From a virus, in IMG/VR virus record IMGVR_UViG_3300005573_001035, positions 73,620 through 137,619 of that record: a stretch of 64,000 nucleotides of DNA; one strand, given 5' to 3'. This document shows, piece after piece, positions 19,604-58,540 of this stretch; the stretch's first letter is position 1, and the number at the start of each line of letters is the position of its first letter. The notes under the pieces are model-generated. The model saw only the letters and a list, made by a program, of their open reading frames with translations. It made no database searches and was not told where the DNA came from. Position numbers and translations under genes: made by a program.

Positions 19604-20236
19604 CTAACTTTCTGACCTATGTCTACTAAGAACTACTCGGTCTTTTGCTTTTCCCCTATAAGCATAAGAAAGTCTATAGTTTCCATACATATGCGCTAAC
19701 TTACAAGTAAAGAAACTACTCCAAAAAGAACTCATTGGGAATGCGCATTGGATTTCATCTGCAACGGAAACCGCAACGAAGTACCTGTCTTGGTAAGATA
19801 AGACTTCAACGGAAATCTGACCAAGTTCATATAGATGATCAAGGGCGTAATCTAAAGATACTTTTAAAATTGGAGGTATGATCCTATACAAAATCGGGTC
19901 TTCAACATCGATATAAGGCAAACATGGCTTTATATCACATACTATAGAATCATTATGGTATACATCTATGTTGGTGACAAAAGAAAGATATAGAACAAAA
20001 CAATGAGCCTCAAACCAATTACTAAACTCAAAGAACTTAGTAATATTTTGATACGAAACTGCTATAATACACCCATCTCTTTCCCAGCTTATGACATATA
20101 TGGTATGAATCTTAGGAATAACATCTTTCCTAAGGTACTTTTCCAAAGATTGTAGAATGTATTCTCTTCTAGTCTTATACGTCCTATACTGACGAATATT
20201 TCGAAGTAATTTCCGAATCGATGGCATCCGTAACAT
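19604..20236 (-). CDS. Hypothetical protein
   Basis: 210-aa ORF overlapping the end of the recombinase gene. Confidence 0.6.
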   Translation of the reverse strand: MLRMPSIRKLLRNIRQYRTYKTRREYILQSLEKYLRKDVIPKIHTIYVISWERDGCIIAVSYQNITKFFEFSNWFEAHCFVLYLSFVTNIDVYHNDSIVCDIKPCLPYIDVEDPILYRIIPPILKVSLDYALDHLYELGQISVEVLSYQDRYFVAVSVADEIQCAFPMSSFWSSFFTCKLAHMYGNYRLSYAYRGKAKDRVVLSRHRSES

Positions 20237-21638
20237 TTTTCTCGAACTCCTCTCTAAATTTCTGATCTGTCATATATCTTTCGAGAGCATCTCGAGTTCG
20301 AAATTTAACATTTGGCATCGTTTGGAGGTAATTCCAGGCCCCCGATACTATTCTTTTAGTCAGTTTCAAGAAAGAGAAATTTGACCAAAAATCACTAAAC
20401 CCACTATTATAATCTAGAATTAGAGGAACTCGAATATTCAAAGCAAAAAGCTTATTCTTAGAACACTTAGCAATAACCTCAATTCCATCAAATCCATACA
20501 TATCTGGTTTAAGAGCGGAACTTATAGTAAGTTCTAAAAGATGAAACGCATTGTATTTTAATGAATTCCCGCCCGGCATCTCTTTTCCAGCAGATAGAAA
20601 CTTCAAGTCTCTGGGTGTTGCATATGGTCCCAATTGAAGAAGATCTCTAAGTTGGTTTACAACAATAAATAAGATATTGTACTTGCTACAATTAGCAACG
20701 TACTTGGGAATCAACAAAGACATTAATCTACTTCGATAACCTACCACCTTAGCAGGATCTGTAGTTTCTAGTTCTTTTTCAGAAAGTGTATTTGCTAAAC
20801 TATCCCAAACTACGATACTAGGTACATCAACCAGTTGCTTGCTTTCTTTAAACAAACACATAGCCTGGAGGACCTTAAAAACTTTCTCAAGAGTTAAGTC
20901 AGTATAAGGTTTAATCTTGGGGTTTCGAACCCCCAATTGAGCCAATCTTTGAGTTGTAACTGCGTGTTCCGAATCCAGATATACACTTAAACATTCTTTT
21001 CCAAACATATTTTGAGCATTTGCAATTACTTGGGCTGCCAAGGTGCTCTTACCACATCCAGGAGCTCCTGTGATAACTGGCATTGTGCCTATAGCAAACC
21101 CACCTCCCAAAATAGCATCAAGAAGGCGGATTCCTGTTGGAATAAGGTTCTTAGTTCCGCTAGAAGATTCTATCTTAGCCTGAACTCTCATGTATTCAGA
21201 AAACTGGATATAGATATCCTCCTTGTCCTCGTCAGTAGATGGCTCTGAGAGGCTTCCTTCTTGAGATTCTTCAAGAGAAGTAGTTCTGGGTTTTCTTCCT
21301 CTTCTTTTAGGAGAGCCAATGATTTCTTCGCTTGGTGGGGACAATGAACTTAGCTCTTCATGAACCTTAGACGCAGCAGAAAAGAAATCATCCACCACTT
21401 CCGACTCAAATCTAGGTTCTTCCAGAATAAGAGAATCATCATTAGAAGACAATAAGTTATCTTCTGGGAAATTTGGTTCGTTCGTTTCATAAACCAAAGC
21501 AGAATCCTCATCATTTACATCTAGATGAGTTTCCCCGCCCCCCTCACCTTCTTCTACAAAGACTCCATCTTCAAAAATTTCTGAGCTTCTTTTTATCATC
21601 TTTCGCCTATCCTCCTCAGAAAAAATGTTGGGTTTCAT
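20184..21638 (-). CDS. uvsX: RecA/UvsX-like recombinase with a long acidic N-terminal extension
   Basis: IPTGIRLLDAILGGG, Walker A GAPGCGKS, YLDSEHA, Walker B VVWDSLA, VNQLR, PGGNSLKY, KNK. Confidence 0.88.
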   Translation of the reverse strand: MKPNIFSEEDRRKMIKRSSEIFEDGVFVEEGEGGGETHLDVNDEDSALVYETNEPNFPEDNLLSSNDDSLILEEPRFESEVVDDFFSAASKVHEELSSLSPPSEEIIGSPKRRGRKPRTTSLEESQEGSLSEPSTDEDKEDIYIQFSEYMRVQAKIESSSGTKNLIPTGIRLLDAILGGGFAIGTMPVITGAPGCGKSTLAAQVIANAQNMFGKECLSVYLDSEHAVTTQRLAQLGVRNPKIKPYTDLTLEKVFKVLQAMCLFKESKQLVDVPSIVVWDSLANTLSEKELETTDPAKVVGYRSRLMSLLIPKYVANCSKYNILFIVVNQLRDLLQLGPYATPRDLKFLSAGKEMPGGNSLKYNAFHLLELTISSALKPDMYGFDGIEVIAKCSKNKLFALNIRVPLILDYNSGFSDFWSNFSFLKLTKRIVSGAWNYLQTMPNVKFRTRDALERYMTDQKFREEFEKNVTDAIDSEITSKYSSV

Positions 21639-27032: not shown

Positions 27033-30000
27033 ATGCCAATTTCAGCACCTAAAGATCCTAAGCTAAAGGCTCTGGTCTCTAAGTTAGATAGGGCTAAAAA
27101 GATCACAGCTATGGCTACGGCCCAAAGGAAAGCCGCCTTAAAAGAGAGCAAGTTTCCCACCGGTAACACAGAAGTAAGAGCTATTAAGAAAGCAGGAATC
27201 GAGGCGGCCACCCGAGTTAGAAAAACCACAGCAAGCCGACGAGTCCCAGAATCTCCAGAGGTTGTAACTCAGATTGCCACTGCTGCAGTTGAGGTATCAA
27301 AGGTTAGTGCGAACTTAGTTGAGAGACTGGGTGAAATTTCTGCTAAGATCGTCAAAGCGACTGCTCAAAACTTAGGCAAAGCCGTTTCTGATTACTCGAA
27401 AGCTATTTCCGAAGACATTAGCGTGAATAAAAGAAATCTAATGGCCCTCTCATTAAGTGCCATAAGCCCTATTGCAGGATACTTTGCATCCAAGTTCTTT
27501 GAAACAGAATTCTTTCAAAACATAAAGAATAAGTTTAAAGAGAAGGCATCTGACGTACTATCCCTTATTGGCGAAAAGATAAGAACAGTTCTTAGTAAGA
27601 TTCCCGTTGTTAAGAGCTTTGTTGCTGGAATTTCTAAGGTCAGCAGGGCAGAAAAGACTGAGGAAATTCCCCAGTTACAACACGGTGGCGTGGTTAAGAA
27701 AGCAGGTCTTGCTAAAATTCACGCAGCCGAGGTCATAGGACCAATAGATAAGGTCATTCCTTTTACAAATCGAAAATGGAGACGTGAACTTATTGGAGAT
27801 GCTCTTAGTCAAATAGGCAAACTTAGTGGAATTAAAATTGGATTTAACAAACTATCTAAGTACTTAACAAAACAAGTTTTTGGAATCTTCTCCGCTATTG
27901 GGGCTAGGATAGGTAGGTGGAAACAGACCTACGAAATGTTTATGGCTCGATTTCCTATCTTTAGAGATATTAAAGAGTGGACAGGAGCGATGTATAAATT
28001 TATTTCTTCTCCTTTTAGGTTTCTCTTCAAAGTCCGAGGTTACACTTATGCAAAAGATATCATGAGAAAAGGAAGCCTCTTAGAACAGATGGTCCATATT
28101 CTAGCCACAACATACGTATCTACAATGTATCGATATGATTATCTTCTTGCATATCTTAGACAAGCCACATATCGACTTGGAATAATCGCACAATTAAAAG
28201 ATCCCAGTGTCCAAGAACCATCTGGTCCTATGGGTTGGAGAATAGCAGGAAAGGTCACGGGGGGCCTATTATTTCTCCCTAGCCTATTAATCAAAGCTCT
28301 TCTTGGGTGGGGTGGACCTCTTAAACTATCTAAAAGACTCCTAAGAGGAAAACGAAGAACCACAATAAAGTCGCCCTTTTGGTACACTGCTTTGCCTGAG
28401 TCGTTTGAATCAGAATGGGGCCCAACACAACCCCAAACTATTAACCAAATTCTCGTTCTAGTTGGAGAATCTGGTCTTAAATTACTAAGAAAGAGAAAAC
28501 AAGGACTTATAGGACTTACTTCTGGTATCACAACTGAAAGCAAACAAAAGGCGCTACCCTCGCCTCCTTACCCAACCCCTCTTCTCGTCACCGAAGCTGA
28601 ACTCCATGCGCTAAGAAGCAAAAAAGGAACGATTATAGAAATTCTCTCAGAAATCGTGTCTGGAATTAGAAAGAAACTATCAGAAGAGAAAAAAACTCTT
28701 GCTAAAACCATTAGGAGCAAATTAGAAGATATTACGGGTGGCATTAAAAAAGACCTACTAAAAAAGAAAGAAACTCTACCTAAAATTCTTACAACCGTAC
28801 TAACTCGTACTACATCTCCATTTTCTAAGAAAATCTCGGCTTTCATAACCGCAGCTTTGGATTTCTTCAAAAAGTTTGGAGCTCTTTCTAAGAGTCTAGC
28901 CAGAAAAGGCGGATCTTATTTCTTTAAGATACTGGGGGTTCTTGGTAGTCTTGCTAGTTCGGTTTTTGGTTTTTTGGGTTCGGTGGGTATGAGATTTCTT
29001 TCTTTAGCAGTTGGCAGATTCCTCCCTTCAGTTGGAAGACTTTTTCCTTTCGTTGGTAGATTCTTCCCTTTAATTGGAAGATTTCTTCCTTTAATTGGTG
29101 GTTTTCTTGGTAGATTCCTTCCTTTCGTTGTAGCAAGAATTCCTTTACTAACAGCCCTGCTTGGAGCTGGTAAGTTTTACAGTGAGCTTAGTAAGGAAGA
29201 AACGCCTAGAGAAAAAGCGTTTAGAGAAAAATACAATATTCCCAAAGCAGGAATGGCCGGGGTTAGTGCATTTAGCACTATAGGGTCCCTTGTTGGTCTA
29301 GATTTAGAAAAAGAAATGAAAGAAGCTGATGAGGCCATTTCAAATATTGATAAAAAGAGACAAGAATCCAATCAAATCTTTTTAGAAAAGAAAATTTCTC
29401 AAATGTCTCCTGCGGCTCGAGACGCCTTCGAGAAACAACTCAGGCAAACCGCCGCAGAAAGGGGCCCACAAGCTGCCGTCGAAGCTCTGCTAAAATTAAG
29501 ACGGGATGGTTTATTGATTTCGAAAGATCAGAAACTATACGTAGCAGGTGAGCTTGATATAACGCCCATTAAAGAAAAAGCTAAACAAACTGTCCAGTCA
29601 AAAATTGAAGAAGCATCAGAAAAAGCCAACCAAATAATTTCAAAAGGAATAAAGATTACAGAAGATATCAAACATAAATTAGAACAGGAAGGAGTTGTAG
29701 AAAAGGTAAATAAGATAAAAGAACAAGCCTTAGACAAACTAAAAAGTAGCGCAGAAAAAATAAAGAAACTTAAGAAAGAAGGAGATATTTGGTCAGACTA
29801 TCCATACGAACTAGGAATGCCTCCTGAAGAAGCAACAAGCGACAAAATTAAGAGAATTGCTGAGCGCCAAGCAAAGGAGGGATACAACATTGCTAAAGAA
29901 AGTATAGAAAAAACGTATAACGAACTTGTATCTGATACATACAAACAAATAGAGAAACTTTTTTCCATAAACATAAAACAAGCCTTTTCAGAGGGCTCAG

Positions 30001-31163
30001 AAAAAATCACAAGCTATCTAGATAGTTTATTCTCTGGGGTGAAAGACAAACTGACATCGATAATGGGGGAAATCTCTCCGGTTATTTCCAAGTTTAGTAA
30101 TTTCTTAGACATAGCTCAAAGATTTATAGAAGAAAAAGCAACCCCATTTATAACGAGTCTACTCGAAGAAGGCAAAGCCCTACCACAAAAACTAGGGTTG
30201 AAAAAACCTAAGTCTCCATTAGAAAACATATTTGATACGTTAAGAAACCTTCCTCAGAAATTAGGAGCAAAAGAACCTAGTGCGTCTCCATTCGAAAACT
30301 TGTTTGATAAGATAAGAAACCTTCCTCAGAAATTAGGAGCAAAAGAACCTAGTGCGTCTCCATTCGAAAACTTGTTTGATAAGATAAGAAACGTTCCTCA
30401 AAAATTAGGGTTAGAACCTAAGTCTCTATTAGAAAACATACTTGATACGATAAGAAACGCTCCTCAGAAATTAGGGTTAAAACCCAAGTCTCCACTAGAA
30501 AACATATTTGATACGTTAAGAAATCTTCCTCAAAAACTAGGAGCAAAAGAACCCACTACGTCCCCAATAGAAGACTTAGAAAGATTCTTAGGCCTAAGAA
30601 AAACACCCTTAGAAAAAGCTAAAGAGAAGATCGAAGAAATAAGACTAGAACCCGTACTCAGAAGGTCCTCCGATTTTATATCAGATGTAGCAGATCTTGT
30701 AAAATCTTCAATAGAAAAAGGAACAACCAGAATCGAAGACATCTGGGCCCTAGCTAAGAAAGATCTATCTGAAACTGATATTCGGTCGGGTCTTTTGTAC
30801 CAAATCATGCTTCAAGTACAAAGAGATTTCGTAATGGAGCAAATGCAAGAAGGGACAATTCCATTTCCCCAGGGCCTGTTTTCTAGTAGTCAATCAGCCA
30901 AGATTCAATCTGAGCAAATTCGAATACTACGAAACATCGAAAACAAACTAACTCCAAAGCCTACGGTTGAAAGTGGAGGTAGCAAGGAGGGAGGAAGTTC
31001 ATCTACCTCAATCAACCAGAATATCTTAACTAACCAGATAAGCAACAATTCTATAATCAATCGTGGAGTTGCAAGAGAAAGTAAAGCAGGTATCCCGAGC
31101 CCAGCAGATGCATTGCAGTTTGGGAATCTAAGCGAGAGCTACATTCCTAGTATAGTGCAATAG
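27033..31163 (+). CDS. Tape-measure-like long helical tail protein
   Basis: 1376 aa, helical; LQHGGVV...AKIHAAEVIGP motif; amphipathic GRFLP repeats. Confidence 0.6.
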   Translation: MPISAPKDPKLKALVSKLDRAKKITAMATAQRKAALKESKFPTGNTEVRAIKKAGIEAATRVRKTTASRRVPESPEVVTQIATAAVEVSKVSANLVERLGEISAKIVKATAQNLGKAVSDYSKAISEDISVNKRNLMALSLSAISPIAGYFASKFFETEFFQNIKNKFKEKASDVLSLIGEKIRTVLSKIPVVKSFVAGISKVSRAEKTEEIPQLQHGGVVKKAGLAKIHAAEVIGPIDKVIPFTNRKWRRELIGDALSQIGKLSGIKIGFNKLSKYLTKQVFGIFSAIGARIGRWKQTYEMFMARFPIFRDIKEWTGAMYKFISSPFRFLFKVRGYTYAKDIMRKGSLLEQMVHILATTYVSTMYRYDYLLAYLRQATYRLGIIAQLKDPSVQEPSGPMGWRIAGKVTGGLLFLPSLLIKALLGWGGPLKLSKRLLRGKRRTTIKSPFWYTALPESFESEWGPTQPQTINQILVLVGESGLKLLRKRKQGLIGLTSGITTESKQKALPSPPYPTPLLVTEAELHALRSKKGTIIEILSEIVSGIRKKLSEEKKTLAKTIRSKLEDITGGIKKDLLKKKETLPKILTTVLTRTTSPFSKKISAFITAALDFFKKFGALSKSLARKGGSYFFKILGVLGSLASSVFGFLGSVGMRFLSLAVGRFLPSVGRLFPFVGRFFPLIGRFLPLIGGFLGRFLPFVVARIPLLTALLGAGKFYSELSKEETPREKAFREKYNIPKAGMAGVSAFSTIGSLVGLDLEKEMKEADEAISNIDKKRQESNQIFLEKKISQMSPAARDAFEKQLRQTAAERGPQAAVEALLKLRRDGLLISKDQKLYVAGELDITPIKEKAKQTVQSKIEEASEKANQIISKGIKITEDIKHKLEQEGVVEKVNKIKEQALDKLKSSAEKIKKLKKEGDIWSDYPYELGMPPEEATSDKIKRIAERQAKEGYNIAKESIEKTYNELVSDTYKQIEKLFSINIKQAFSEGSEKITSYLDSLFSGVKDKLTSIMGEISPVISKFSNFLDIAQRFIEEKATPFITSLLEEGKALPQKLGLKKPKSPLENIFDTLRNLPQKLGAKEPSASPFENLFDKIRNLPQKLGAKEPSASPFENLFDKIRNVPQKLGLEPKSLLENILDTIRNAPQKLGLKPKSPLENIFDTLRNLPQKLGAKEPTTSPIEDLERFLGLRKTPLEKAKEKIEEIRLEPVLRRSSDFISDVADLVKSSIEKGTTRIEDIWALAKKDLSETDIRSGLLYQIMLQVQRDFVMEQMQEGTIPFPQGLFSSSQSAKIQSEQIRILRNIENKLTPKPTVESGGSKEGGSSSTSINQNILTNQISNNSIINRGVARESKAGIPSPADALQFGNLSESYIPSIVQ
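30175..30560 (+). repeat. Six 22-24 aa PQKLG repeats in the tape-measure-like gene
   Basis: LPQKLG(A/L)K...SP(L/F)EN(I/L)FD(T/K)(L/I)RN; two copies form a near-exact 72-nt duplication. Confidence 0.9.
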
Positions 31164-44763: not shown

Positions 44764-46029
44764 TTATTTCTTCTTTGATTTTGTTTTGGCTCGCCTAGCT
44801 TTATAGCCAGCAACTCGGCCCATAGAAGCACAGAAGGCCCAGGGATCGGACACTTTGTCTTTCATTTTACTGACACAGGTTCGAATCTTTCTTTTTCTAC
44901 CTCTAGTCATTGTCATAAAGGCTTTCTTTACACTTTTCTTAGTCCACCCTCTAGGGAGACTCGACCAAGCTTTACTTTTCGCCTCTAGAACTTGAGACTC
45001 GCTTATCTCTTCTCCTTCCTCTTCCTTCGAAGCACCAGAAATCATATTCAGTAAGAATCGAAGCTTATCTTCAAGTCTTCTTCTTCTCGCCATCAGCATA
45101 TGGGCGCATGGACGAGGAAGGTCTGATCCAGAACATAAAGACTCAGTTTTATTCAAGTAAGAAATCTTCTTTAATTGAATACTAATATGTGCCTTTAAGA
45201 TACATTCTGCTAGTGCATCTTCATCCTCTCCCGCAGACTCCTGGCAGGATCGATATAAGGGTTCAAGTTTAGAATCTAGTTCTTGGTAGCATTTGTAAAG
45301 AATAATTGTAAGAAGTGTTTGATAAGGAATCTTATCAGGATTCTTAATTAATAGAACCTTATCCGCTACGGTTTCAAAAGAATTGGAAAAAGATTCAGAC
45401 TTTATTCCGCTTTCAAACACTTCTTTGTTACCATCAATTATAGAACTTATTGTTTCTAGCAATGTTTTTCGATACTTCTTTAAAGCCGCAATTGATTCTG
45501 CTAGCTCAGACAGAGACTTTCTATACTTCTGGTCAGAAAGAACTTTCTTATCTTTTGACCTAAGTTTCCTAAACTGGTCTAGCAATCTTTCTTCTTCCCG
45601 AAGAGCTAAGCCTAGTTCCATGAACAAAGTGGCTTTGCTAAGCTTAAATCCGCCACCTAGTTTAACTTTTGAGAAGTTCATAGACTCGGAAAGAAACTTC
45701 TTGCTCGTGCTTGCTCCATGTAAGCAGACCAAGTTTTCTCGTAGATTTAAGCTAGTTTTCTGGCCTATAACTTTTGAGTGTGCCTTAATAAAAGACTTAA
45801 ATTTTTGCAAGATAGCTTCCTGCAACATATAAGATTCAGATAGAAAATCGATTGGAACTGGAATCTTCTTTCTACTCATAAGATAGTAAAGAATCTCAGC
45901 ATCAGATGCATCTTCCAAAATGTACTTCTTCGCTTGTGGGTTCTTTGTTATATTAGAAAGAACAGATCTTGCCGTTACTAGAAATCGAATCGTTTCCTGA
46001 ATTTTTTGCTTAGGACTTGTAGAACTCAT
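44764..46029 (-). CDS. Paralog array member 6 (divergent; extra C-terminal Cys/Trp motif)
   Basis: SDAEILYYLM N-motif; C-x13-C-x22-C-x8-C; tail WSSLPRGW...CVSKM...WAFC. Confidence 0.75.
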   Translation of the reverse strand: MSSTSPKQKIQETIRFLVTARSVLSNITKNPQAKKYILEDASDAEILYYLMSRKKIPVPIDFLSESYMLQEAILQKFKSFIKAHSKVIGQKTSLNLRENLVCLHGASTSKKFLSESMNFSKVKLGGGFKLSKATLFMELGLALREEERLLDQFRKLRSKDKKVLSDQKYRKSLSELAESIAALKKYRKTLLETISSIIDGNKEVFESGIKSESFSNSFETVADKVLLIKNPDKIPYQTLLTIILYKCYQELDSKLEPLYRSCQESAGEDEDALAECILKAHISIQLKKISYLNKTESLCSGSDLPRPCAHMLMARRRRLEDKLRFLLNMISGASKEEEGEEISESQVLEAKSKAWSSLPRGWTKKSVKKAFMTMTRGRKRKIRTCVSKMKDKVSDPWAFCASMGRVAGYKARRAKTKSKKK

Positions 46030-50414: not shown

Positions 50415-51818
50415 TTATGCCTTGGATAGTTTTTGTCTCTTTTGGATTAGTTTCATTAGCCTCTTTCTTAGAAATGCCTGGCATTTCGAAGGATTGGATG
50501 TCTTTCTGCATAGAGACATACTAGACTGGACTTGTGAGATTTCTTTCGCCAAGGCTTCCCTCTTAGCTTTCTGTACGCACTCATCAAAAGCAGCTCCCTT
50601 TAAGTGAGAACACGCTCGGCCATACGCACTAATATGCCTCCGATAAATCCTTCTTCCAGCATAAGCCAATAAGCCAGCCAACGCAACCCCACCAATAATG
50701 TGGGTTAGGGTTGGGTTGGAATCAACCCACTGCTTAACTTGCTGAAAAGAACCTTCATGTTTATCAATCATTTGCTTTAAAGCATTATAGAAATCTGAAA
50801 TTTTCTCGCTCGCCTTATCAACTAGAGATGGAGTGGTGGCCCCAGGTTCTCCGCTAAGTGGTGGAACTTCTGTTTGTTCTGTTCCATAAGCAGACTCTGG
50901 ATAGTGCCTTCCTGTAACTGCGCCAGAAAATTCGGGTCCAAGGCTATACTCATCCCCAGGTCCAGGTACAGATGCCGCTGGCTCGAGGCTTGTATAGTAG
51001 GGATGGGTAATTGGGTTTGGCCCAGTAGGTCCTCCTATATAACTAGGATGAAGGGCCATGGTTCCTCCAGATTTACCAAGTTCTCCGATCGCTTCTGGTG
51101 TTATAGTCCCAGCAGGAAGTGCATTCTCAGGACCTGCCCAGCCCCTTGCAGCATGGCGAACATCCTGCTGAGCAATTCGGGCAACGTCCGCTGGAGATGA
51201 GGATTGTCCAATTACCTTTTTCCAGTACTCATAAGGCGTCCTTAGGAAGAAATCTTTAGCTGCTTCAAGAGCGTCTCCCCTACCCTGTTCAGCTAAAAGT
51301 CTAGCCTTAGACAAAAACTCCATTCTTTTCAAATTATCGAAGGTACTCTCCGACTCTCGAAGAAACGAGGCAATAAGAACTGGTCTTAGATTCTTTCTTA
51401 CTTTCTTCATTTCATTTAAAGAAAGAGAAGGAAAAGATTTCTTTCCAGAAACAAACTTTTTGACTTCGGTTAATCTGGAGCTGGTCTTAAAGATTCTTAG
51501 AGGAACAGAATATGCAAAGACCTCGGAAAGTTCTTTTAAGGAACTTGACTTCTTAGATATAGACCTAAGTATAGAAGCAACCTTAAAAGAAAAGGCCTCA
51601 TGCAATATAACTTCCCTTGCAATGTCATGTTTCTTAGAAACCATTCGTCCATTAATTACCATTTCCAGAATCTGATAATCGGTTAGCTTGTTCAAAATAA
51701 TATCTTTAGCACTGGCTCTGTTCTTTTTGGCAATGTAAGGAAGCAAGGCTTCTGAAAGAGCTTCTCGAATATGAAGTAAAAGAAGCATAGTTTCCTTTCT
51801 GGGATCATATTTAGCCAT
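50415..51818 (-). CDS. Paralog array member 1
   Basis: TDYQILEMVI; LLAEQ; Pro/Gly-rich variable region; hydrophobic helix; C-x10-C-x22-C-x8-C. Confidence 0.8.
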   Translation of the reverse strand: MAKYDPRKETMLLLLHIREALSEALLPYIAKKNRASAKDIILNKLTDYQILEMVINGRMVSKKHDIAREVILHEAFSFKVASILRSISKKSSSLKELSEVFAYSVPLRIFKTSSRLTEVKKFVSGKKSFPSLSLNEMKKVRKNLRPVLIASFLRESESTFDNLKRMEFLSKARLLAEQGRGDALEAAKDFFLRTPYEYWKKVIGQSSSPADVARIAQQDVRHAARGWAGPENALPAGTITPEAIGELGKSGGTMALHPSYIGGPTGPNPITHPYYTSLEPAASVPGPGDEYSLGPEFSGAVTGRHYPESAYGTEQTEVPPLSGEPGATTPSLVDKASEKISDFYNALKQMIDKHEGSFQQVKQWVDSNPTLTHIIGGVALAGLLAYAGRRIYRRHISAYGRACSHLKGAAFDECVQKAKREALAKEISQVQSSMSLCRKTSNPSKCQAFLRKRLMKLIQKRQKLSKA

Positions 51819-51869: not shown

Positions 51870-52583
51870 TTATCGACGTCCACCATATGTCTTAACAAGC
51901 TCTTTAGATCCTACAAATTGCTCCTGGATTCCCTTAATGTAGTTCAAAACCCATGGTTCTCGATAAGCATAATCAACATGGAATGGAATTTCAACGTCCA
52001 ACCTAGCAATCGACTCAATATCAAAGGAATACAAGTCCTGAGGATCCTTTAGAGGGAAACACCCATCATAGCAAACAAAGTACTCAACCGAAACACCATC
52101 TGGGGCAGTGGTCCAGTAATAGATCAAGCAACCAAAGGTCTTCATAGAATACCCATCGCCCTGGTCACCATCAATAAGATCAGTAGCCCCAGTTCTATAG
52201 TCTCTAATCATCTTAATCCAAGCATGGAAAATGTTGAGAATAGGAACCTTGTTAAATTCTAAGAACTTTATAGAAATTTCATTACCATAATCAATGTTAC
52301 CTGGCACTGCCCACTTCAAACCACCAAGACCAGGTAACTCAACTTTGGCCAGAGTTCCCCCAACTGGAGTTACAGAAAGACATGACGCAGATAGAATTAA
52401 CTGGACTTCTGACAGAGAAGTAATGTTACTATCTAGCAATGAAACATAGTCTCCAAGCGCTCGAGGCAAACGATCAAACCAAGTAAAACCATACCCTGAA
52501 GTATAAGGATCAGCAGTTCCAGTTAACCCACCAAACTTACGACTAAATAGATTTTCCCTTAGAGCAGCAAAAGACGTTTTCAT
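51870..52583 (-). CDS. Tail tube protein (gp19-like)
   Basis: SVTPVGGTL...VPGNIDYGNEISIKFLE...IFHAWI...YDGCFP...VEIPFHVDY follows the tube-protein pattern. Confidence 0.7.
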   Translation of the reverse strand: MKTSFAALRENLFSRKFGGLTGTADPYTSGYGFTWFDRLPRALGDYVSLLDSNITSLSEVQLILSASCLSVTPVGGTLAKVELPGLGGLKWAVPGNIDYGNEISIKFLEFNKVPILNIFHAWIKMIRDYRTGATDLIDGDQGDGYSMKTFGCLIYYWTTAPDGVSVEYFVCYDGCFPLKDPQDLYSFDIESIARLDVEIPFHVDYAYREPWVLNYIKGIQEQFVGSKELVKTYGGRR

Positions 52584-52588
52584 TCAGA

Positions 52589-52909
52589 CTACCCCCTATT
52601 TTTAGAAGCGTGTGTATTTTTGTCCTTCTTGGATTTTGTAACCCTTCTTTTCTTTTTACTAGGCAAAGAAGCAGAGATGATTGAGTTTCCAGCCGCTATG
52701 GAATCTGGATATGGAACTCGGAGGACAGACTTCTCTCTAGATGGGGCTGGAGAGTCTATTGGCAAAAAAGACTCAGCAACTTTTCTAGCATATTTCATGA
52801 ACATAAACTCTACCATTGGATCAAAGAAGAAATCTGAATCCATCAAGAAGATCTCCTCTTTTTGCAAAAAGATAGAATTTCCTAATATTTTGTTCTTAAC
52901 ATAGTTCAA
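52589..52909 (-). CDS. Hypothetical protein (start probably the internal MDSDFF)
   Basis: Short ORF; AGAGGAG precedes the internal ATG. Confidence 0.45.
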   Translation of the reverse strand: MNYVKNKILGNSIFLQKEEIFLMDSDFFFDPMVEFMFMKYARKVAESFLPIDSPAPSREKSVLRVPYPDSIAAGNSIISASLPSKKKRRVTKSKKDKNTHASKNRG

Positions 52910-52969
52910 ATCTACAGAAAATGGATACTCAAAATATGAACAAATTAGTTTCTTAGTTACATACTAAGT

Positions 52970-53527
52970 TTATTCTTCTTGTTGGGATGTTGGGAGGCTG
53001 GAGGGACTTGTTTTCGAAAGAGAGACTTTTCTTCGGACTTGCATCGCGGAATCAACAGCTTCGATAAGCTCATAAATCTGCTCTTCTTCAAGAAGACCAG
53101 TTCCTGGACCATTTTGTCCAACTTTTCGAACCATCTCAAACTCATCTTTCAAAGATCTAGATATCTCCTTCCTTATTTCTAATAGCACTCGGAATAACTC
53201 GCTCAGAGACTTAACTCTTTCCGTGTAAACCATTGAGTTTCTAAAATCTGGCCGGTCTGGAAAAAGGAGGTCTATCTTCTTCTTTGTATGATCCAATTCT
53301 TGGATTAATTGAAAAAGAGCATTTCGGTTCGTAGCAAATTCTTGAAGCAAAGAATTTAGTCGTTCCTGGGGATCTATGCTATTAGGATTCGTGACTCCAG
53401 GAAGACCACACCCATCATCTATTGATACCGGAAGGTCCAAAGATGAAGAATTCTGGTCTTCCTGGAGTAGGGGATCTTGGTCTTCGAAATCAATCGAGGT
53501 AGTTAAACTTTCGTCTTGGGAACTCAT
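52970..53527 (-). CDS. Hypothetical coiled-coil protein (start likely MSSQDES)
   Basis: AGGAGG before ATG ~53527; overlaps the end of nrdD-C. Confidence 0.65.
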   Translation of the reverse strand: MSSQDESLTTSIDFEDQDPLLQEDQNSSSLDLPVSIDDGCGLPGVTNPNSIDPQERLNSLLQEFATNRNALFQLIQELDHTKKKIDLLFPDRPDFRNSMVYTERVKSLSELFRVLLEIRKEISRSLKDEFEMVRKVGQNGPGTGLLEEEQIYELIEAVDSAMQVRRKVSLSKTSPSSLPTSQQEE

Positions 53528-55337
53528 AAGTCCTCCTAGTTTTGGCCCAACTAGAAACCGGAGTAAAGTAACCAACAACGCGAGTGATGTAATCTGAAAC
53601 TTTCTCCCCACAAATTGGACATATTTCCACTTTCTTTAAGACGGAGTGCCTATTTGGACATACAGAAAATACAGGATTCAAGGCAAAGTGCTCAAGACCA
53701 CATGAAATGGCATATTGAATTAGTTTTTTCATTTGGTCTTTCGTTGCTGGGGCTCCAATATTTAGATGACTAATCATACCACCTGTAAAGTACTTACTCA
53801 TAATTCCATCAATTCTAGCTCTATCAAATAGGTCAATATCTAACCACAAAGGAACGAATTGGTTAGCATATAACATATGCTCATTGTCTCCAAAAAAGAC
53901 CGCATCCTTTCTTGCCGACACAATAGCTGCGCCTTCTGCAGGAACTTGCTCAATGTTAATTGGAATAGAATACTGGTCTATTTTATCTTTAGCTAATGAA
54001 TTTAGATAGTTTAGAATTTCGATGGCAAAATCTTGATTCTCAATTAAATCATAGCCCATGTACCTGAGTCCCTCATAGAAACCATTTATACCAACCGTAG
54101 AATAGAACATACGATCCAAATCAAACCACTTAAGAGGACTAAAGAATTGGAGACTCCCCTCTTCGATCTTATCCCTAAGAAGCATTCTATGAGCATAAAG
54201 AATCTTTACACTATCTTCAAAAGAATCTGCAATATGCATCTTAAATAAAGACTTATCTCCTCCGCTCATCCTACCTAGTCGTGCTACGTTAATTGTGCAC
54301 ACCCTGTGTGAGCCAATATTAATACCTCCATTCCCAAAACTATCAATCCCCTTGTATTGCATCAAATCAGCAACATTATTAATTAGTCGGCAACAAGATG
54401 CAATCTTTGCATAATCAGTTGTTATAAAGATATTAAAGAGCCCTTCTCGATTATAATTAGCAACCTGGTCTATAAAATCATAGTCTAAACTACCATTTGC
54501 AAAAATATTACAGGTAGTAACTGGGAATCTATATGGCAAGTTGGTCATGGGATCTTTATCGGCCATAAACTTTAAGAAAATATTTTGCACTTCTATAATA
54601 ACGTCTTCTATATCTTTAGCACATGTACCATCTGGAAAGTAATGATTATCGAAAACTCTCTCCAAAGTAGGCCTATCAAAAATAGATACGTTTGTAAAGG
54701 GACTATTATGAGCATAGATTCCAGAAGAACAAACAAAATTCTCATCTCCTTCAACGGAAATATCATACACGTAGTTATCTACTGCTAAGTTAGTTTCTAT
54801 TTTTGTAACAAATGCAAGTTCTTTGGTTAGGACCTGAGATGGATTATTTGGATCTTCCGATTCAACAACTACTTGCATTCCCGGTTTGGTCTGGTTAGGA
54901 GAGAACGTTCTAATTATTCCATTTTCATCTTTGTAGAAAAGACTATGGTCTTCGGTGGTAGAGATCTTGGATCCATCTTGAAGGTACAGATCGTAGAGAT
55001 CATTTTTCCTAACATGCTTCTCAACTGCGTAGATCTTGTGGAACATTTCTGTTCCATCTTCCGTATTAAATGACTTGGTGTAGTAGGAATCACTTCCATT
55101 TAACGGAAAGTAAAGATCGAAATTGGTTGATTGGGGAATAAACCTATCAACAAATTTACCAATTTCTATATCCATCGGCTCTAATTCAACGAGTTCTATA
55201 TCGTAATCTGGTGGAAGAATATGTATTGTTCCATTCTTCAGTGTAATGTAAACCATCCCATCTTCTTCTCGAATGGACTTAATGTTTTGTTTAACGATTG
55301 TCAAGCTTGGGTAAATAACTTGTTTCTGATTTGGCAT
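53490..55337 (-). CDS. nrdD: Anaerobic ribonucleotide reductase C-terminal half, preceded by the split-intein C-fragment (aa 1-211)
   Basis: Intein block B TTEDHSLF and blocks F/G VYDISVEGDENFV...GIYAHN/S; extein SPFTNVSIFD, SCCRL, EQVPAEG, CPNRH...CPICG, glycyl radical YITRVVGYF. Confidence 0.92.
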   Translation of the reverse strand: MPNQKQVIYPSLTIVKQNIKSIREEDGMVYITLKNGTIHILPPDYDIELVELEPMDIEIGKFVDRFIPQSTNFDLYFPLNGSDSYYTKSFNTEDGTEMFHKIYAVEKHVRKNDLYDLYLQDGSKISTTEDHSLFYKDENGIIRTFSPNQTKPGMQVVVESEDPNNPSQVLTKELAFVTKIETNLAVDNYVYDISVEGDENFVCSSGIYAHNSPFTNVSIFDRPTLERVFDNHYFPDGTCAKDIEDVIIEVQNIFLKFMADKDPMTNLPYRFPVTTCNIFANGSLDYDFIDQVANYNREGLFNIFITTDYAKIASCCRLINNVADLMQYKGIDSFGNGGINIGSHRVCTINVARLGRMSGGDKSLFKMHIADSFEDSVKILYAHRMLLRDKIEEGSLQFFSPLKWFDLDRMFYSTVGINGFYEGLRYMGYDLIENQDFAIEILNYLNSLAKDKIDQYSIPINIEQVPAEGAAIVSARKDAVFFGDNEHMLYANQFVPLWLDIDLFDRARIDGIMSKYFTGGMISHLNIGAPATKDQMKKLIQYAISCGLEHFALNPVFSVCPNRHSVLKKVEICPICGEKVSDYITRVVGYFTPVSSWAKTRRTYEFPRRKFNYLD

Positions 55338-55369
55338 GCGTATATTTCTCCTTCTCTTTTTTTTCTAAA

Positions 55370-56233
55370 CTAAGTGGTTAGGACTCGATCTGCTAAACGA
55401 ATAGTTGGGTACAAGTAAGGAACAACCTCTATGTTACCAGAAGAAGGTATTCGAACTACCACTCCCCCAAGATCTGGTTGGACTTTTCCGTAGCAATTTA
55501 CCAACTTTGACCATCCTCCCCAAAGTTTCCAACATGGAGCTTGAATAAGAACTCTTGATGGAAATTTCAAGCATAGGAATCTATGAAGATGTCCTCTTGC
55601 ATATAAGTCAATTTTATCTCCTATTCGATACAAACTTTGATCCAAGAAATTAGACTCTCTTTCCAAAGAGGTAGACAAATAGATTAAACTCTGACTTGAA
55701 CCATGGACAAAGAAACACCTGGTTCCTACATTCTTCAATCTAATATTAGCAACTAGACCAAAGAAAGTCCCTCCCAACCTTAAGGTCACAAGTTTATCTA
55801 GTGACAAATCTATAGAATTATGATATCTAGATCCATCAACTGAGATAATTAACTTCCCACCAGATACCAAAGGGGTTAAGATCTTAGAGGCCACTTGAAG
55901 TTGAGCATCTAACTCTGCGGTTGTTAACTGGCGCCCAAATTCTCTTCTGTTATTTCCTTCACATATATCTCCAAGAAGAACAACGGTATCACACCCAGAT
56001 GCCTTCTCACAGAAATCATTCCAATATTCTAATAGAACTTTTTGTGCGGAATTTGCTCTAATCTCAAGTGAGTCACCCGAAAAGTCACTCCATAACCCGT
56101 ACAAACTTCCTACATGGAGGTCCCCAACAATTGCTATCTCTCTCGATTTAGATGGTAGTCTTGGCCTCTTTTTTGATGCCATTCTACTTTCCCCCTCTAT
56201 TATGCACATATGTGAACTAGGTTTGAAGTACAT
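55370..56233 (-). CDS. Calcineurin-like metallophosphoesterase
   Basis: GDLHVG, LLGDICEG, DGSRYH, FVHG, RGHLH. Confidence 0.8.
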   Translation of the reverse strand: MYFKPSSHMCIIEGESRMASKKRPRLPSKSREIAIVGDLHVGSLYGLWSDFSGDSLEIRANSAQKVLLEYWNDFCEKASGCDTVVLLGDICEGNNRREFGRQLTTAELDAQLQVASKILTPLVSGGKLIISVDGSRYHNSIDLSLDKLVTLRLGGTFFGLVANIRLKNVGTRCFFVHGSSQSLIYLSTSLERESNFLDQSLYRIGDKIDLYARGHLHRFLCLKFPSRVLIQAPCWKLWGGWSKLVNCYGKVQPDLGGVVVRIPSSGNIEVVPYLYPTIRLADRVLTT

Positions 56234-56319
56234 GTATAGATCTTACAAAAAGTAGGTCCTGACAAGAAAGAAAAACCTCGAGAGGGGAGAAAGCATAAAA
56301 CTAATGTAATCGAATTTCG

Positions 56320-56667
56320 TTAGACTTCAAAAATTTCTATACTAAATGGATCCAGGTCATTAGGAGTATCTGGTATCTTCTCATTCATAGTAAGGGCATC
56401 TCGTTCCTGTTCTATTGTTTTGGTTTGTTTCTTTCCTCCTTCTTTTACTACATTCACACTACTAGAAACTTCTTCTAGTTTATTGTAGTCAATTCGTCTC
56501 GATACTATATCCTTCATAGTAAAACCAAACGCGTACAATTTCTTCTTAATCGAACTGGTAGTTCGATATGGAAGAACCTCGGCAATTTCTTTAAACGAGC
56601 ATCCCTTTCGAGCCAAGTCTAGAAGAACCTGAATTTCTTCTTCTGACCACCCTAAGTTCTTGATCAA
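56320..56667 (-). CDS. Myb/SANT/GcrA-like helix-turn-helix protein
   Basis: WSEEEIQVLLDLARKGCSFKEIAEVLPYRTTSSIKKKL. Confidence 0.7.
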   Translation of the reverse strand: MIKNLGWSEEEIQVLLDLARKGCSFKEIAEVLPYRTTSSIKKKLYAFGFTMKDIVSRRIDYNKLEEVSSSVNVVKEGGKKQTKTIEQERDALTMNEKIPDTPNDLDPFSIEIFEV

Positions 56668-56783
56668 AGTCTATCTCCCTCTCCTCTCTCTTTCTAGTCA
56701 ATAAAAGTACAAAACTTTTCAACTTTTATTTTTATGTTCAGAGAGAGGTTAATTTTCACCCCTACTATCACCAAACAACAAGA

Positions 56784-57605
56784 CTAAGCTCCAGTCTTCT
56801 GATTAGAAAAATTAGAACATAACTCCAAAGCCGTCATTCGTTTAGAACTTTTTACTCGGTAGACTCGAATCTTTTCGCAATATCTAAGAGAATCTCCACC
56901 AACTCGAAACTTGTTATTAACCGTATGCACAAATCTCTGAAATTCGTTTCGAATCTTAGATCGAATCTGAGAATTCTCTCTAATAAAAGTTGCTATAGCC
57001 TGTTTAGGTAGATGATACTCTTGTATAAGGTCATTTACAAGAAACCAAGAATAGTTGACAAATAAATCTGCTAGAGCAACTGCCCCAGCAAAATTCTGAG
57101 ATAAGTCCATGGTAGTTTCAACTACCTGGGAAATATAGGAATCCGTCCTTTTAGGAGGTCTAGAAAAAAGATCTCCAAACCTTCTTCCTTCAAGAATCAA
57201 ATGATATGTACTAGCCCCAATACAATAAGGAATAACCCACTTAGTAAGATCATGGGGGTAGTAGAAACCAGAAATGCATTTAGAAATAATTCTATTCGCG
57301 GTCTCAATATTGAACAATTTCTTTAAGTACATCCAGAGAAGATAAAGACCATTTAGTTTCATAAGACCCTTGAAGATCTCATTCGTATACGTGTTAAAGG
57401 ACTTGCTTTGGCCAACATTCGCGTTGGGATCTACCGAAATATCGGAAGTGACAGATCGAAAGAACTTCTTTGACATATCTGAAAAATCAAGCTCATCTCT
57501 AGAAATTCCAGTAAGTTGAAGAAGTCTCTTTTTCTTCTCCGTGGTTCCAAAAGATGTATAGAGGTCACAAAAATCCTTATCATAGTTAATAGAAACATGC
57601 AACAT
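56784..57605 (-). CDS. nrdD: Anaerobic ribonucleotide reductase N-terminal half, followed by the 35-aa split-intein N-fragment
   Basis: SVDPNAN, YPHDL, PYC, SQNFAGA, FQRFVHTVN..RVGGD, then intein block A-like SLRYCEKIRV (starts at 56891). Confidence 0.9.
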   Translation of the reverse strand: MLHVSINYDKDFCDLYTSFGTTEKKKRLLQLTGISRDELDFSDMSKKFFRSVTSDISVDPNANVGQSKSFNTYTNEIFKGLMKLNGLYLLWMYLKKLFNIETANRIISKCISGFYYPHDLTKWVIPYCIGASTYHLILEGRRFGDLFSRPPKRTDSYISQVVETTMDLSQNFAGAVALADLFVNYSWFLVNDLIQEYHLPKQAIATFIRENSQIRSKIRNEFQRFVHTVNNKFRVGGDSLRYCEKIRVYRVKSSKRMTALELCSNFSNQKTGA

Positions 57606-57649
57606 GTCACCTAACCCCCTCTGAATATTCTATTATTTTAGTTTGTAAC

Positions 57650-58159
57650 TTAGTGCATTGCATTGAAAGAAGATTGTGGTGAAGTTTGCTTATTGATTGG
57701 AAGTGTGCTAGGATCAACTAGTTGGCGAGAAACAAATACCCTCTGGTTAGAAGATGAGGGAAAAGAAGAAGTTCTTTTAGAAAAATCAAACTCGCCATCA
57801 ATAACCACATCTAAAACCTCCTTTATATCTTCTCTTAAAGACTCGTACTTGAAACCCGTATAAAGAATCGTTCTTAGATTATTGTTTTTACAAAATGTGG
57901 CTAGATCCAAAAGCTGATCTGGATACAAATTAAATTCACCGCCGCAAAACACAACAGAATCAATTAGAGGTAGTCGGGATCTAATTTTTTCCTTTATTTC
58001 ATCCAATGACATTTCAATGCCGTAGGAGGGATCTTGGAGTTCTGGTTGCTGGCACTTATAACACCGCCTATTGCATCCTGCGCAAAAAATCGTTAAAGAA
58101 ATCCCCAGGAACGGATCATCATTTAACGTAATCGAAAAAGACGCAATAGGTACAAACAA
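57650..58159 (-). CDS. nrdG: Anaerobic RNR activating radical SAM enzyme
   Basis: GCNRRCYKCQQPE, FCGGE, YTG, DVVIDGEF, SSNQR; adjacent to nrdD. Confidence 0.9.
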   Translation of the reverse strand: MFVPIASFSITLNDDPFLGISLTIFCAGCNRRCYKCQQPELQDPSYGIEMSLDEIKEKIRSRLPLIDSVVFCGGEFNLYPDQLLDLATFCKNNNLRTILYTGFKYESLREDIKEVLDVVIDGEFDFSKRTSSFPSSSNQRVFVSRQLVDPSTLPINKQTSPQSSFNAMH

Positions 58160-58318
58160 GAACGGTCTTCCTTTCTCTTACAAACCAGACTTTCTTTTTT
58201 TTTGATTACTGGTGAGGAATAAAAAGTAATTTTTGTTCTAGGTTGGAGAGAACCAAAAAAAGCAGAAAAGCATCCTTAAACCAGAAAGACTAGAACTAAG
58301 AAGAAAAAAGAAAAGAAC

Positions 58319-58540
58319 TCAGCCAAATCGCAACAGATCTAGGCAATCTGTTTTCTGAGGATAGCACTCACATTCTACAAAAATAGAATTATCACAACAA
58401 ATTATAGAATGGACTCTTTGGCACCATCCCTTAGCCGAGTAACAAACTAGGTCTGAATAAGAATCACAATCTCGCGGGTCTTCTGGGACAATCATTCCGT
58501 TATCCAAAACTTTAACTTCGACAGGACGAATAATAGTCAT
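58319..58540 (-). CDS. Small Cys-rich hypothetical protein
   Basis: 73 aa with 8 Cys; GGAGGG SD. Confidence 0.55.
   Translation of the reverse strand: MTIIRPVEVKVLDNGMIVPEDPRDCDSYSDLVCYSAKGWCQRVHSIICCDNSIFVECECYPQKTDCLDLLRFG

Follow-up and report, generated by a model that had tools for sequence, protein, structure and literature searches.

An nrdD gene fractured into two genes that carry the parts of a probable atypically split Ser1/Ser+1 intein in a hot-spring phage

In a 64,000-nucleotide stretch of viral DNA (positions 73,620 to 137,619 of IMG/VR record IMGVR_UViG_3300005573_001035; hereafter, the window), the NrdD protein of class III ribonucleotide reductase (RNR) is encoded by two separate genes, each of which carries part of an intein at the break. 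Taken together, the sequence and structure comparisons indicate that these parts probably constitute a functional, atypically split intein with serine at both splice junctions (Ser1/Ser+1), which would make NrdD by protein trans-splicing; we infer both the association of the fragments and the chemistry. An earlier note on this DNA, made from the letters alone, had proposed a split intein of this kind in NrdD with a short N-terminal fragment (Int-N), and the profile, NCBIfam, Pfam and structure alignments described below support that proposal. The general kind of intein is already known, because the PolB16 OarG intein (Ser1/Ser+1, atypically split) has been characterised; the host gene and the additional segments are new.

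nrdD is encoded in two pieces

Both pieces lie on the minus strand. The first open reading frame (ORF; 273 aa, 56784-57605; hereafter, the N ORF) contains an extein ending in ...FRVGGD, after which a 35-aa tail starting SLRYCEKI is read from 56891. The second (615 aa, 53490-55337; the C ORF) begins with 211 aa that carry IEIGKFVDRF, TTEDHSLF, VYDISVEGDENFV and YAHN, followed directly by SPFTNVSIFD. The ORF list and BLASTP against P0003, the closest intein-less relative, bear out the two ORFs, motifs and coordinates of the earlier note to the residue, and a recount of the tail agrees with its 8 basic and 2 acidic residues. Based on PHROGs, Pfam and NCBIfam, the 273-aa ORF is the N-terminal third of NrdD, and the 615-aa ORF is an intein splicing domain (residues 57/89-211) with the remainder of NrdD after it. 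The Pfam NRDD profile is matched by the N ORF over positions 31-154 and by the C ORF over positions 157-560; residues 89-211 of the C ORF also match Intein_splicing over positions 25-155 of 155.

When aligned to NrdD as had been suggested, the two exteins span one complete protein. The N ORF covers positions 3-223 of the 631-position NCBIfam model NF006127 and the C ORF covers positions 221-627, with scores that sum to 536.6 bits over both ORFs, slightly below the 545-bit whole-protein cut-off. BLASTP aligned residues 1-239 of the N ORF to residues 1-237 of P0003 (640 aa) and residues 211-611 of the C ORF to residues 236-636, with 63% aa identity in both halves. At the break P0003 reads FRVGGDSPFTN, the NrdD junction motif that rejoining the exteins restores; Ser239 of the N ORF directly follows extein residue D238 at the point where P0003 reads GGD-S. 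Nothing is lost or overlaps when the exteins are set against P0003 and the NrdD profile, and the arrangement of two ORFs with intein parts is far beyond chance.

The break lies after strand β2

Four lines of evidence bear on the position of the split. We built a profile from the first 26 residues of eight contiguous NrdD inteins (profile A) and compared its scores with those of 500 shuffles; the first 8 tail residues matched its positions 1-8, and residues 57-67 of the C-terminal intein fragment (Int-C) matched its positions 15-25, in either case with a score that 0/500 shuffles reached. A block-A profile of 47 related Ser1/Cys1 inteins aligned its positions 1-11 with tail residues 1-11, a score that 3 of 1000 shuffles reached. 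TIGR01445 (Intein_Nterm) matches Int-C from profile position 16 only (residues 57-134), and TIGR01443 (Intein_Cterm) matches residues 189-212 of the C ORF, both above their cut-offs.

The fourth line comes from the predicted structure. AlphaFold modelled Int-C (residues 1-225, from a 15-row alignment) with a mean predicted local distance difference test score (pLDDT) of 77.9, and a comparison of the model with the PDB listed 50 entries (Z 11.1-17.9), of which 47 are inteins, two are hedgehog domains and one is an intein-like domain. Alignable residues of the model run from 48-55 (69 in one of the 50 entries) to about 211; in PDB chains that are numbered from the intein start, the alignment begins at residue 11-25, and in most of them at 11-14. 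Based on the two profiles, the starts of the TIGR01445 and Pfam matches, and the AlphaFold alignment, we place the break after strand β2, which is the S1 split site, as in VidaL and PolB16.

The total length of Int-N (35 aa) is within the natural range of 15-37 aa given in PMC13014065, and its working part, judged from the sequence matches, would be about 11 residues. The earlier description of the tail as block A-like holds for these first ~11 residues, whereas the remaining 24 codons are poorly constrained and gave no match in any profile used. Among five natural variants, residues 1-17 of Int-N are invariant in all five and 6 of the 18 distal positions vary; in the N-extein, ~13 of 238 positions vary among the same five. 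In addition, contigs from two sequencing runs (X1 and X4) leave the window sequence at 56804, six codons before the Int-N stop, and the window does not contain a 30-mer taken from the loose end. This suggests that a variant with another tail end and other downstream DNA co-exists with the window sequence, and different cassettes may occupy the interval between the nrdD halves. Given the distal variation and the divergence at 56804, the tail resembles a read-out into inserted DNA under loose constraint. Past 56804, the X1 and X4 contigs continue for 99 and 255 nt, respectively, that are unrelated to the window. We found no further intein remnant in three frames of the intergenic DNA past the Int-N stop, and no second intein with a HINT profile in all six frames of the window.

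Catalytic residues and proposed splicing mechanism

Int-C has the residues expected of a class 1 intein. K107, H108, T128, H131, D192, H210, N211 and S212 are invariant in four Int-C sequences that share 32-40% identity, and we assign K107-H108 to motif NX, T128..H131 to N3, D192 to C2, H210-N211 to C1, and S212 to the Ser+1 position. In Ser1 inteins, motif NX consists of a His after Lys/Arg upstream of N3 (Pasch et al. 2023, PMC10189870); K107-H108 fits this motif and aligns with the R-H of the Ser1 mini-intein P0201, an assignment made by alignment, not superposition. Together with Ser1 on the other fragment, the candidate thus combines the defining features of the class: Ser1, T-x-x-H, the block F Asp, His-Asn, a +1 nucleophile and the HINT fold.

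In the mechanism that we propose, nrdD would have been fractured into two genes at a recurrent NrdD intein site. The product NrdD(1-238)-Int-N would bring Ser1 and ~11 residues (β1-β2), the product Int-C (211 aa)-NrdD(C) would bring the rest of the HINT fold, and the two fragments would associate. An N-O acyl shift at Ser1, aided by T128/H131 and K107-H108, would be followed by movement of the acyl group to Ser+1 and by cyclisation of Asn211, aided by H210 and D192. The result would be native NrdD with the junction VGGD-SPFTN, ready for activation by the neighbouring NrdG, and the 24-aa basic tail of Int-N would be a loosely constrained remnant.

Several points weigh against trans-splicing. 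A split phage RNR can reportedly work without splicing, as in the work on Aeh1 nrdA. A phage nrdA that is split is still functional (PMC3653736). Whereas the suggested intein HMM search returned matches for Int-C (Pfam, TIGR01445 and TIGR01443), the 35-aa tail alone matched no intein model in NCBIfam. The conservation of Int-N is known only within ~95% relatives. Finally, in phmmer, PI-PkoII residues 2-18 aligned with residues 40-56 of Int-C; therefore, Int-C may keep a pseudo β1-β2 that Int-N must displace.

In an alternative arrangement, the two NrdD pieces would act as a non-covalent complex without being ligated, with the intein parts retained as handles or with Int-C cleaving itself off via Asn211, and with the tail as a remnant. 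A pseudo block A within Int-C, a leader segment that is predicted to fold by itself, a poorly constrained distal Int-N tail, and the functional split phage nrdA would all be compatible with such a complex. However, the K-H of motif NX and the T..H of motif N3 are invariant at 32-40% identity, and both are needless for C-cleavage alone; because the machinery for the N-junction is conserved, self-cleavage by Int-C only is not expected. In addition, the first 17 residues of Int-N are invariant while the tail varies, and both the structure and the profile tests find canonical residues 1-10 missing from Int-C. We therefore regard unligated pieces as unlikely, though as the strongest of the alternatives to trans-splicing.

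The Int-C leader is a predicted β module

The earlier note had also proposed an N-terminal extension of ~50 aa on Int-C, and homology to inteins does begin only at about residues 48-57. In the AlphaFold model, residues 1-10 of this leader are disordered and residues 11-50 form five β strands, with pLDDT 83-92 in the context of Int-C. Folding residues 1-58 by themselves gave pLDDT 88-94 and matching strands, apart from a difference of one residue at two strand starts. Among the intein matches, the leader is common only to P0002 (17/41 identical residues) and, weakly, P0137 (7/34); for comparison, identity in the core is 60/157 and 45/132, respectively. P0002 is a 608-aa protein with the same split-C architecture, and P0137 is a truncated protein of 291 aa. 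In every lineage the leader has an acidic net charge (-2 to -6), and that of Int-N is +6. Based on these predictions and relatives, the extension is a conserved, independently folding β module rather than a mere spacer.

A fold search with the leader against 48,161 chains gave a best Z of 3.7 (VIA), and Foldseek gave no match at E ≤0.001. The structure matches are those of a generic β-meander, and this does not prove that the fold is new. Because the module is conserved, foldable and acidic in the face of a basic Int-N, we propose with low confidence that it maintains the solubility of the incomplete fold and/or assists electrostatic capture of the very short Int-N.

A different role would make the leader a cage: it would fill the β1-β2 groove, Int-N would displace it by strand exchange, and splicing would be conditional or slow. 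This remains a live rival because the phmmer alignment places PI-PkoII residues 2-18 at the end of the leader, which is β-rich, acidic, conserved and situated directly before the start of canonical homology. In P0002 and P0137, hairpins of the leader bear a weak resemblance to the β2-turn-β3 of block A (score reached by 61 and 63 of 1000 shuffles, respectively); in contrast, the leader in the window has no block-A signal (431 of 1000 shuffles), and the leader is predicted to fold alone with nearly the same strands. We consider a cage improbable, somewhat more so than a complex of unligated pieces. On the shuffle result for the window, the idea that the leader is a duplicate of block A was rejected, and a resemblance to canonical block A seen by eye was discarded as unsupported.

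It is possible, albeit doubtful, that the leader represents a previously undescribed accessory domain of split inteins, acting as a chaperone/capture device or as a strand-exchange cage, and that it enables an Int-N of ~11 residues. If so, the element would combine the shortest natural Int-N known with cysteine-free chemistry.

The split is authentic and the RNR genes are constrained

We compared the window with Logan contigs from sequencing runs. In run X1, a possible source of the record, a 5330-nt contig covers 53300-57389 with zero differences. Contigs from three other studies (X3-X5) are ~97-98% identical to the window; they are small and of low depth, and they leave the stretch partly uncovered. 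Among them, the X4 contig (56458-57009) bridges the end of Int-N into the next gene, and the X3 (55204-55521) and X5 (55205-55491) contigs bridge the end of the phosphoesterase gene to the start of Int-C. Five protein variants of the N half, all 273 aa, and three of the C half, one of them a truncated call, have no frameshifts or stops.

The other runs differ from the window at 103 nucleotides, of which 40 were displayed and classified. Among these 40, the nrdD C-extein has 7 synonymous to 0 nonsynonymous differences, and nrdG has 15 synonymous to 2 nonsynonymous differences; this indicates purifying selection on the RNR system and speaks against a dead gene. At the protein level, comparison with P0001 gave 17 differences in the 211 residues of the intein and 7 in the 404 residues of the C-extein, so that the intein changes about five times faster. 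Faster change of the intein than of the extein is usual for inteins.

These data leave little room for a decaying pseudogene, in which a mobile cassette destroyed nrdD, or for an assembly or sequencing artefact such as a chimeric contig, the mis-assembly that had been raised earlier. Two unrelated genes do separate the halves, and a variant contig does diverge inside the Int-N tail. However, both junctions are bridged in three other studies, the reading frames of all variants are intact, the displayed C-extein differences are all synonymous, and the split form persists in lineages at 32-40% identity, which makes either version very improbable. Least probable of all is joining at the RNA level, with the 1.4-kb insert as an intron: phage nrdD genes do carry group I introns (PMC3653736), but Rfam gave no intron match at E up to 1 across 52500-58500, the insert has two ORFs with ribosome-binding sites, the intein halves account for the break, and no joints were found in the contigs, which are DNA contigs only.

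Genes at the locus and elsewhere in the window

The two nrdD genes are part of a run of minus-strand ORFs that comprises nrdG (57650-58159), the 273-aa, 115-aa and 287-aa ORFs, and the 615-aa ORF (Table 1). NrdD depends on a partner activase, NrdG, and the adjacent ORF encodes it, with assignment to PHROG 626 (anaerobic RNR small subunit). The 1.4 kb separating the nrdD halves holds two ORFs on the same strand, both with Shine-Dalgarno-like sequences. Such a sequence precedes each of the four genes, with a strong one before the Int-C ATG. A promoter and terminator scan gave counts not above those in shuffles.

Table 1. Coordinates of the nrdD pieces, the intein segments and the adjacent genes in the window
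Feature	Position	Strand	Basis or remark
nrdG, radical-SAM activase of class III RNR	57650..58159	-	directly upstream of N half; Fer4_12 1.6e-18, Radical_SAM 1.9e-11 (Pfam)
nrdD N-extein, codons 1-238, ends ...FRVGGD	56892..57605	-	NF006127 and P0003 alignment
Int-N core, 11 codons (SLRYCEKIRVY), Ser1 and strands β1-β2 (block A)	56859..56891	-	profile matches
Int-N tail, 24 codons (5 basic, 1 acidic) and stop	56784..56858	-	outside all profile matches
Intervening gene 1, 115-aa Myb-like helix-turn-helix protein	56320..56667	-	Pfam Myb_DNA-binding 1.7e-6; PHROG 323, transcriptional regulator
Intervening gene 2, calcineurin-like metallophosphoesterase, 287-aa ORF	55370..56233	-	weak Pfam Metallophos 0.0022
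Int-C leader, codons 1-51	55185..55337	-	AlphaFold and relatives
Int-C HINT core, codons 52-211	54705..55184	-	structure alignment, TIGR01445, TIGR01443
nrdD C-extein, codons 212-615 and stop, begins with Ser+1 (SPFTN)	53490..54704	-	NF006127 and P0003

The metallophosphoesterase resembles phage phosphoesterase clusters (Atlas feature score 0.96; structural template modelling score, TM, up to 0.83), and its family is common in tailed phages; a comparison with PDB sequences gave no meaningful match. Translation of the gene likely begins at an ATG 51 nt into the ORF, with a Shine-Dalgarno-like sequence of its own. In the first 55 codons of this ORF, the displayed differences are 8 nonsynonymous to 2 synonymous, in contrast to nrdD and nrdG, and three of them precede the probable true start; the N-terminus seems to be under relaxed constraint or else under diversifying selection. 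No endonuclease family was detected in the insert with Pfam, PHROGs, NCBIfam or Atlas, and it is conceivable that the insert encodes a nuclease of a new type.

The window also has genes for a terminase, a baseplate wedge protein, a collagen-like tail fibre and a UvsX-like recombinase, and it is part of a large tailed phage; the stretch occurs in hot-spring metagenomes, with no RNA run listed as containing it, and the longest recorded contig for these proteins has 137,619 bases. A 213-aa ORF with a GTG start (52970-53611, minus strand) shares 122 nt with the 3' end of nrdD, and its true start is probably further downstream. The tail-fibre protein (1603 aa, 9288-14099, minus strand) has collagen-like repeat matches in up to 17 stretches per PHROG family. 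In the UvsX-like recombinase ORF (484 aa, 20184-21638, minus strand), the family match starts at residue 153, and ~150 N-terminal residues are unexplained. Three ORFs encoding 1376, 421 and 467 aa (27033-31163, plus strand; 44764-46029, minus strand; 50415-51818, minus strand) have no PHROG match at 1e-5; the 467-aa product has a Pro/Gly-rich middle and a hydrophobic segment close to its C-terminus.

Relatives of the intein

An exhaustive representative search with Int-C residues 1-215 returned 141 matches at E ≤0.001. Nine contiguous NrdD proteins (P0024, P0126, P0128, P0130, P0136, P0144, P0176, P0194 and P0219) have an intein at the same site. Excluding P0024, which carries a LAGLIDADG match, and P0219, these inteins are 408-494 aa long (n=7), and most of the contiguous NrdD inteins start SL-x-[YF]-N-E-K-I-I-V-D-G-K-x-V-E-I-G-K-F-V. 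They share with the split intein the insertion point (...R-x-x-x-Q/D followed by S at one junction, and HN followed by S-P/A-F-T/S-N at the other), the Ser1/Ser+1 chemistry and block A (SL-x-Y/F-N-E-K-I), with P0144 matching 7 of the 11 Int-N core residues. Whereas the split intein has a leader module and a tail, the contiguous inteins lack both; they are single polypeptides, and the seven inteins of 408-494 aa are large enough to include an endonuclease domain.

Searches of nucleotide data returned contiguous forms at this site. The DNA of the locus gave no match to phage genomes, viral contigs scanned with the C ORF and alignment A2 gave no relatives, and genome contigs scanned with alignment A2 gave none. 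In metagenome contigs, alignment A2 gave 123 relatives, the best 80 of which were considered; a known 96% relative was not among them. At none of these 80 loci does the match cover the leader, as every match starts at query residue ≥53, and a motif screen of the same 80 found three (L021, L043 and L044) with an intein at the NrdD junction, all contiguous. For P0002 and P0137, no N-half partner was identified; the protein search gave close relatives of the N half only.

Other matches may belong to further split inteins. Seven proteins (P0127, P0182, P0187, P0199, P0222, P0230 and P0250) have a Met start, block B (T-x-D-H-S-L-F) after 40-100 residues, and ...AHN; the extein that follows is mostly SYSIGGVSLD, with SFRPPASEKF in P0222 and in the first of the two units of P0127. 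By sequence, they resemble the Int-C parts of additional inteins with an atypical split, hosted by a different family of phage genes. P0161 (189 aa) has a HINT domain after ~30 residues, what may be its own Ser1 block A, and an 11-residue C-extein; it may be another split or degenerate intein.

Relation to known split inteins and fractured genes

The closest functional parallel is PolB16 OarG, an intein of a PolB-type polymerase from a sheep-gut metagenome (PDB 8cpn/8cpo). PolB16 has a natural split after β2 (the S1 site), a short Int-N (15 aa), Ser1 and Ser+1, and the class 1 motifs including the [K/R]-H of NX, and it trans-splices (PMC10189870, PMC13014065). It is stated to be the only known natural example of its kind, and to be slow and prone to C-cleavage (PMC13014065, March 2026). 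The intein described here differs in its host gene (NrdD), in having a 35-aa Int-N of which ~11 residues match block A, in the extra folded module of ~40 aa on Int-C, and in its origin in a hot-spring phage. Sequence similarity between the two is marginal (E 0.33-0.34), and the present intein would work like PolB16 although the two are not closely related.

VidaL and the AceL and GOS TerL inteins are also natural split inteins whose Int-N is short and that come from metagenomic sequence. Their hosts, TerL and (for VidaL) UvsX, are phage genes. In contrast to the intein in the window, they are cysteine-dependent, and the TerL ones are split after helix α1 (the S2 site). The alignment of the VidaL structure (6vgv) with our model begins at chain residue 17, immediately after the 16-aa Int-N (PMC13014065). 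The consulted portions of the sources report no N-terminal accessory module on their Int-C; the folded leader and the Int-N tail are additions that those portions do not mention for known atypical split inteins.

The locus also recalls fractured genes described earlier, namely those of Dassa et al. 2009 (PMC2677866) and AceL NrdHF (PMC7891396), in which a phage DNA-metabolism gene lies in two same-strand pieces with intein parts and with one or more foreign genes between the halves. Those genes are split at the canonical site of endonuclease insertion, and the Int-N of AceL NrdHF is 98 aa long (PMC7891396). They usually contain a free-standing GIY-YIG, HNH or Vsr-like endonuclease (PMC2677866), whereas the insert described here has a helix-turn-helix protein and a metallophosphoesterase; since no homing-endonuclease family was detected in this insert, the locus differs in that respect from those that Dassa et al. 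described. A literature search found no NrdD split intein, in agreement with the earlier note, which knew of none; the consulted portion of PMC3653736 likewise has none, and NrdD has 0 occurrences in the consulted text of PMC2677866.

The finding provides a second natural example of this kind of intein, unrelated to PolB16, from a hot-spring phage, and with ~11 functional residues in Int-N, as judged from the profile matches. Its cysteine-free chemistry and short Int-N make it a candidate protein-ligation tool that could be useful, and the hot-spring origin suggests that it may tolerate heat; apart from this practical interest, its biological interest is moderate. With its two diverged relatives, P0002 and P0137, the intein forms a small family, and it raises the question of what role the conserved leader module plays. 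In biological terms, the locus extends fractured genes to class III RNR, with a fracturing cassette that has no recognisable homing endonuclease.

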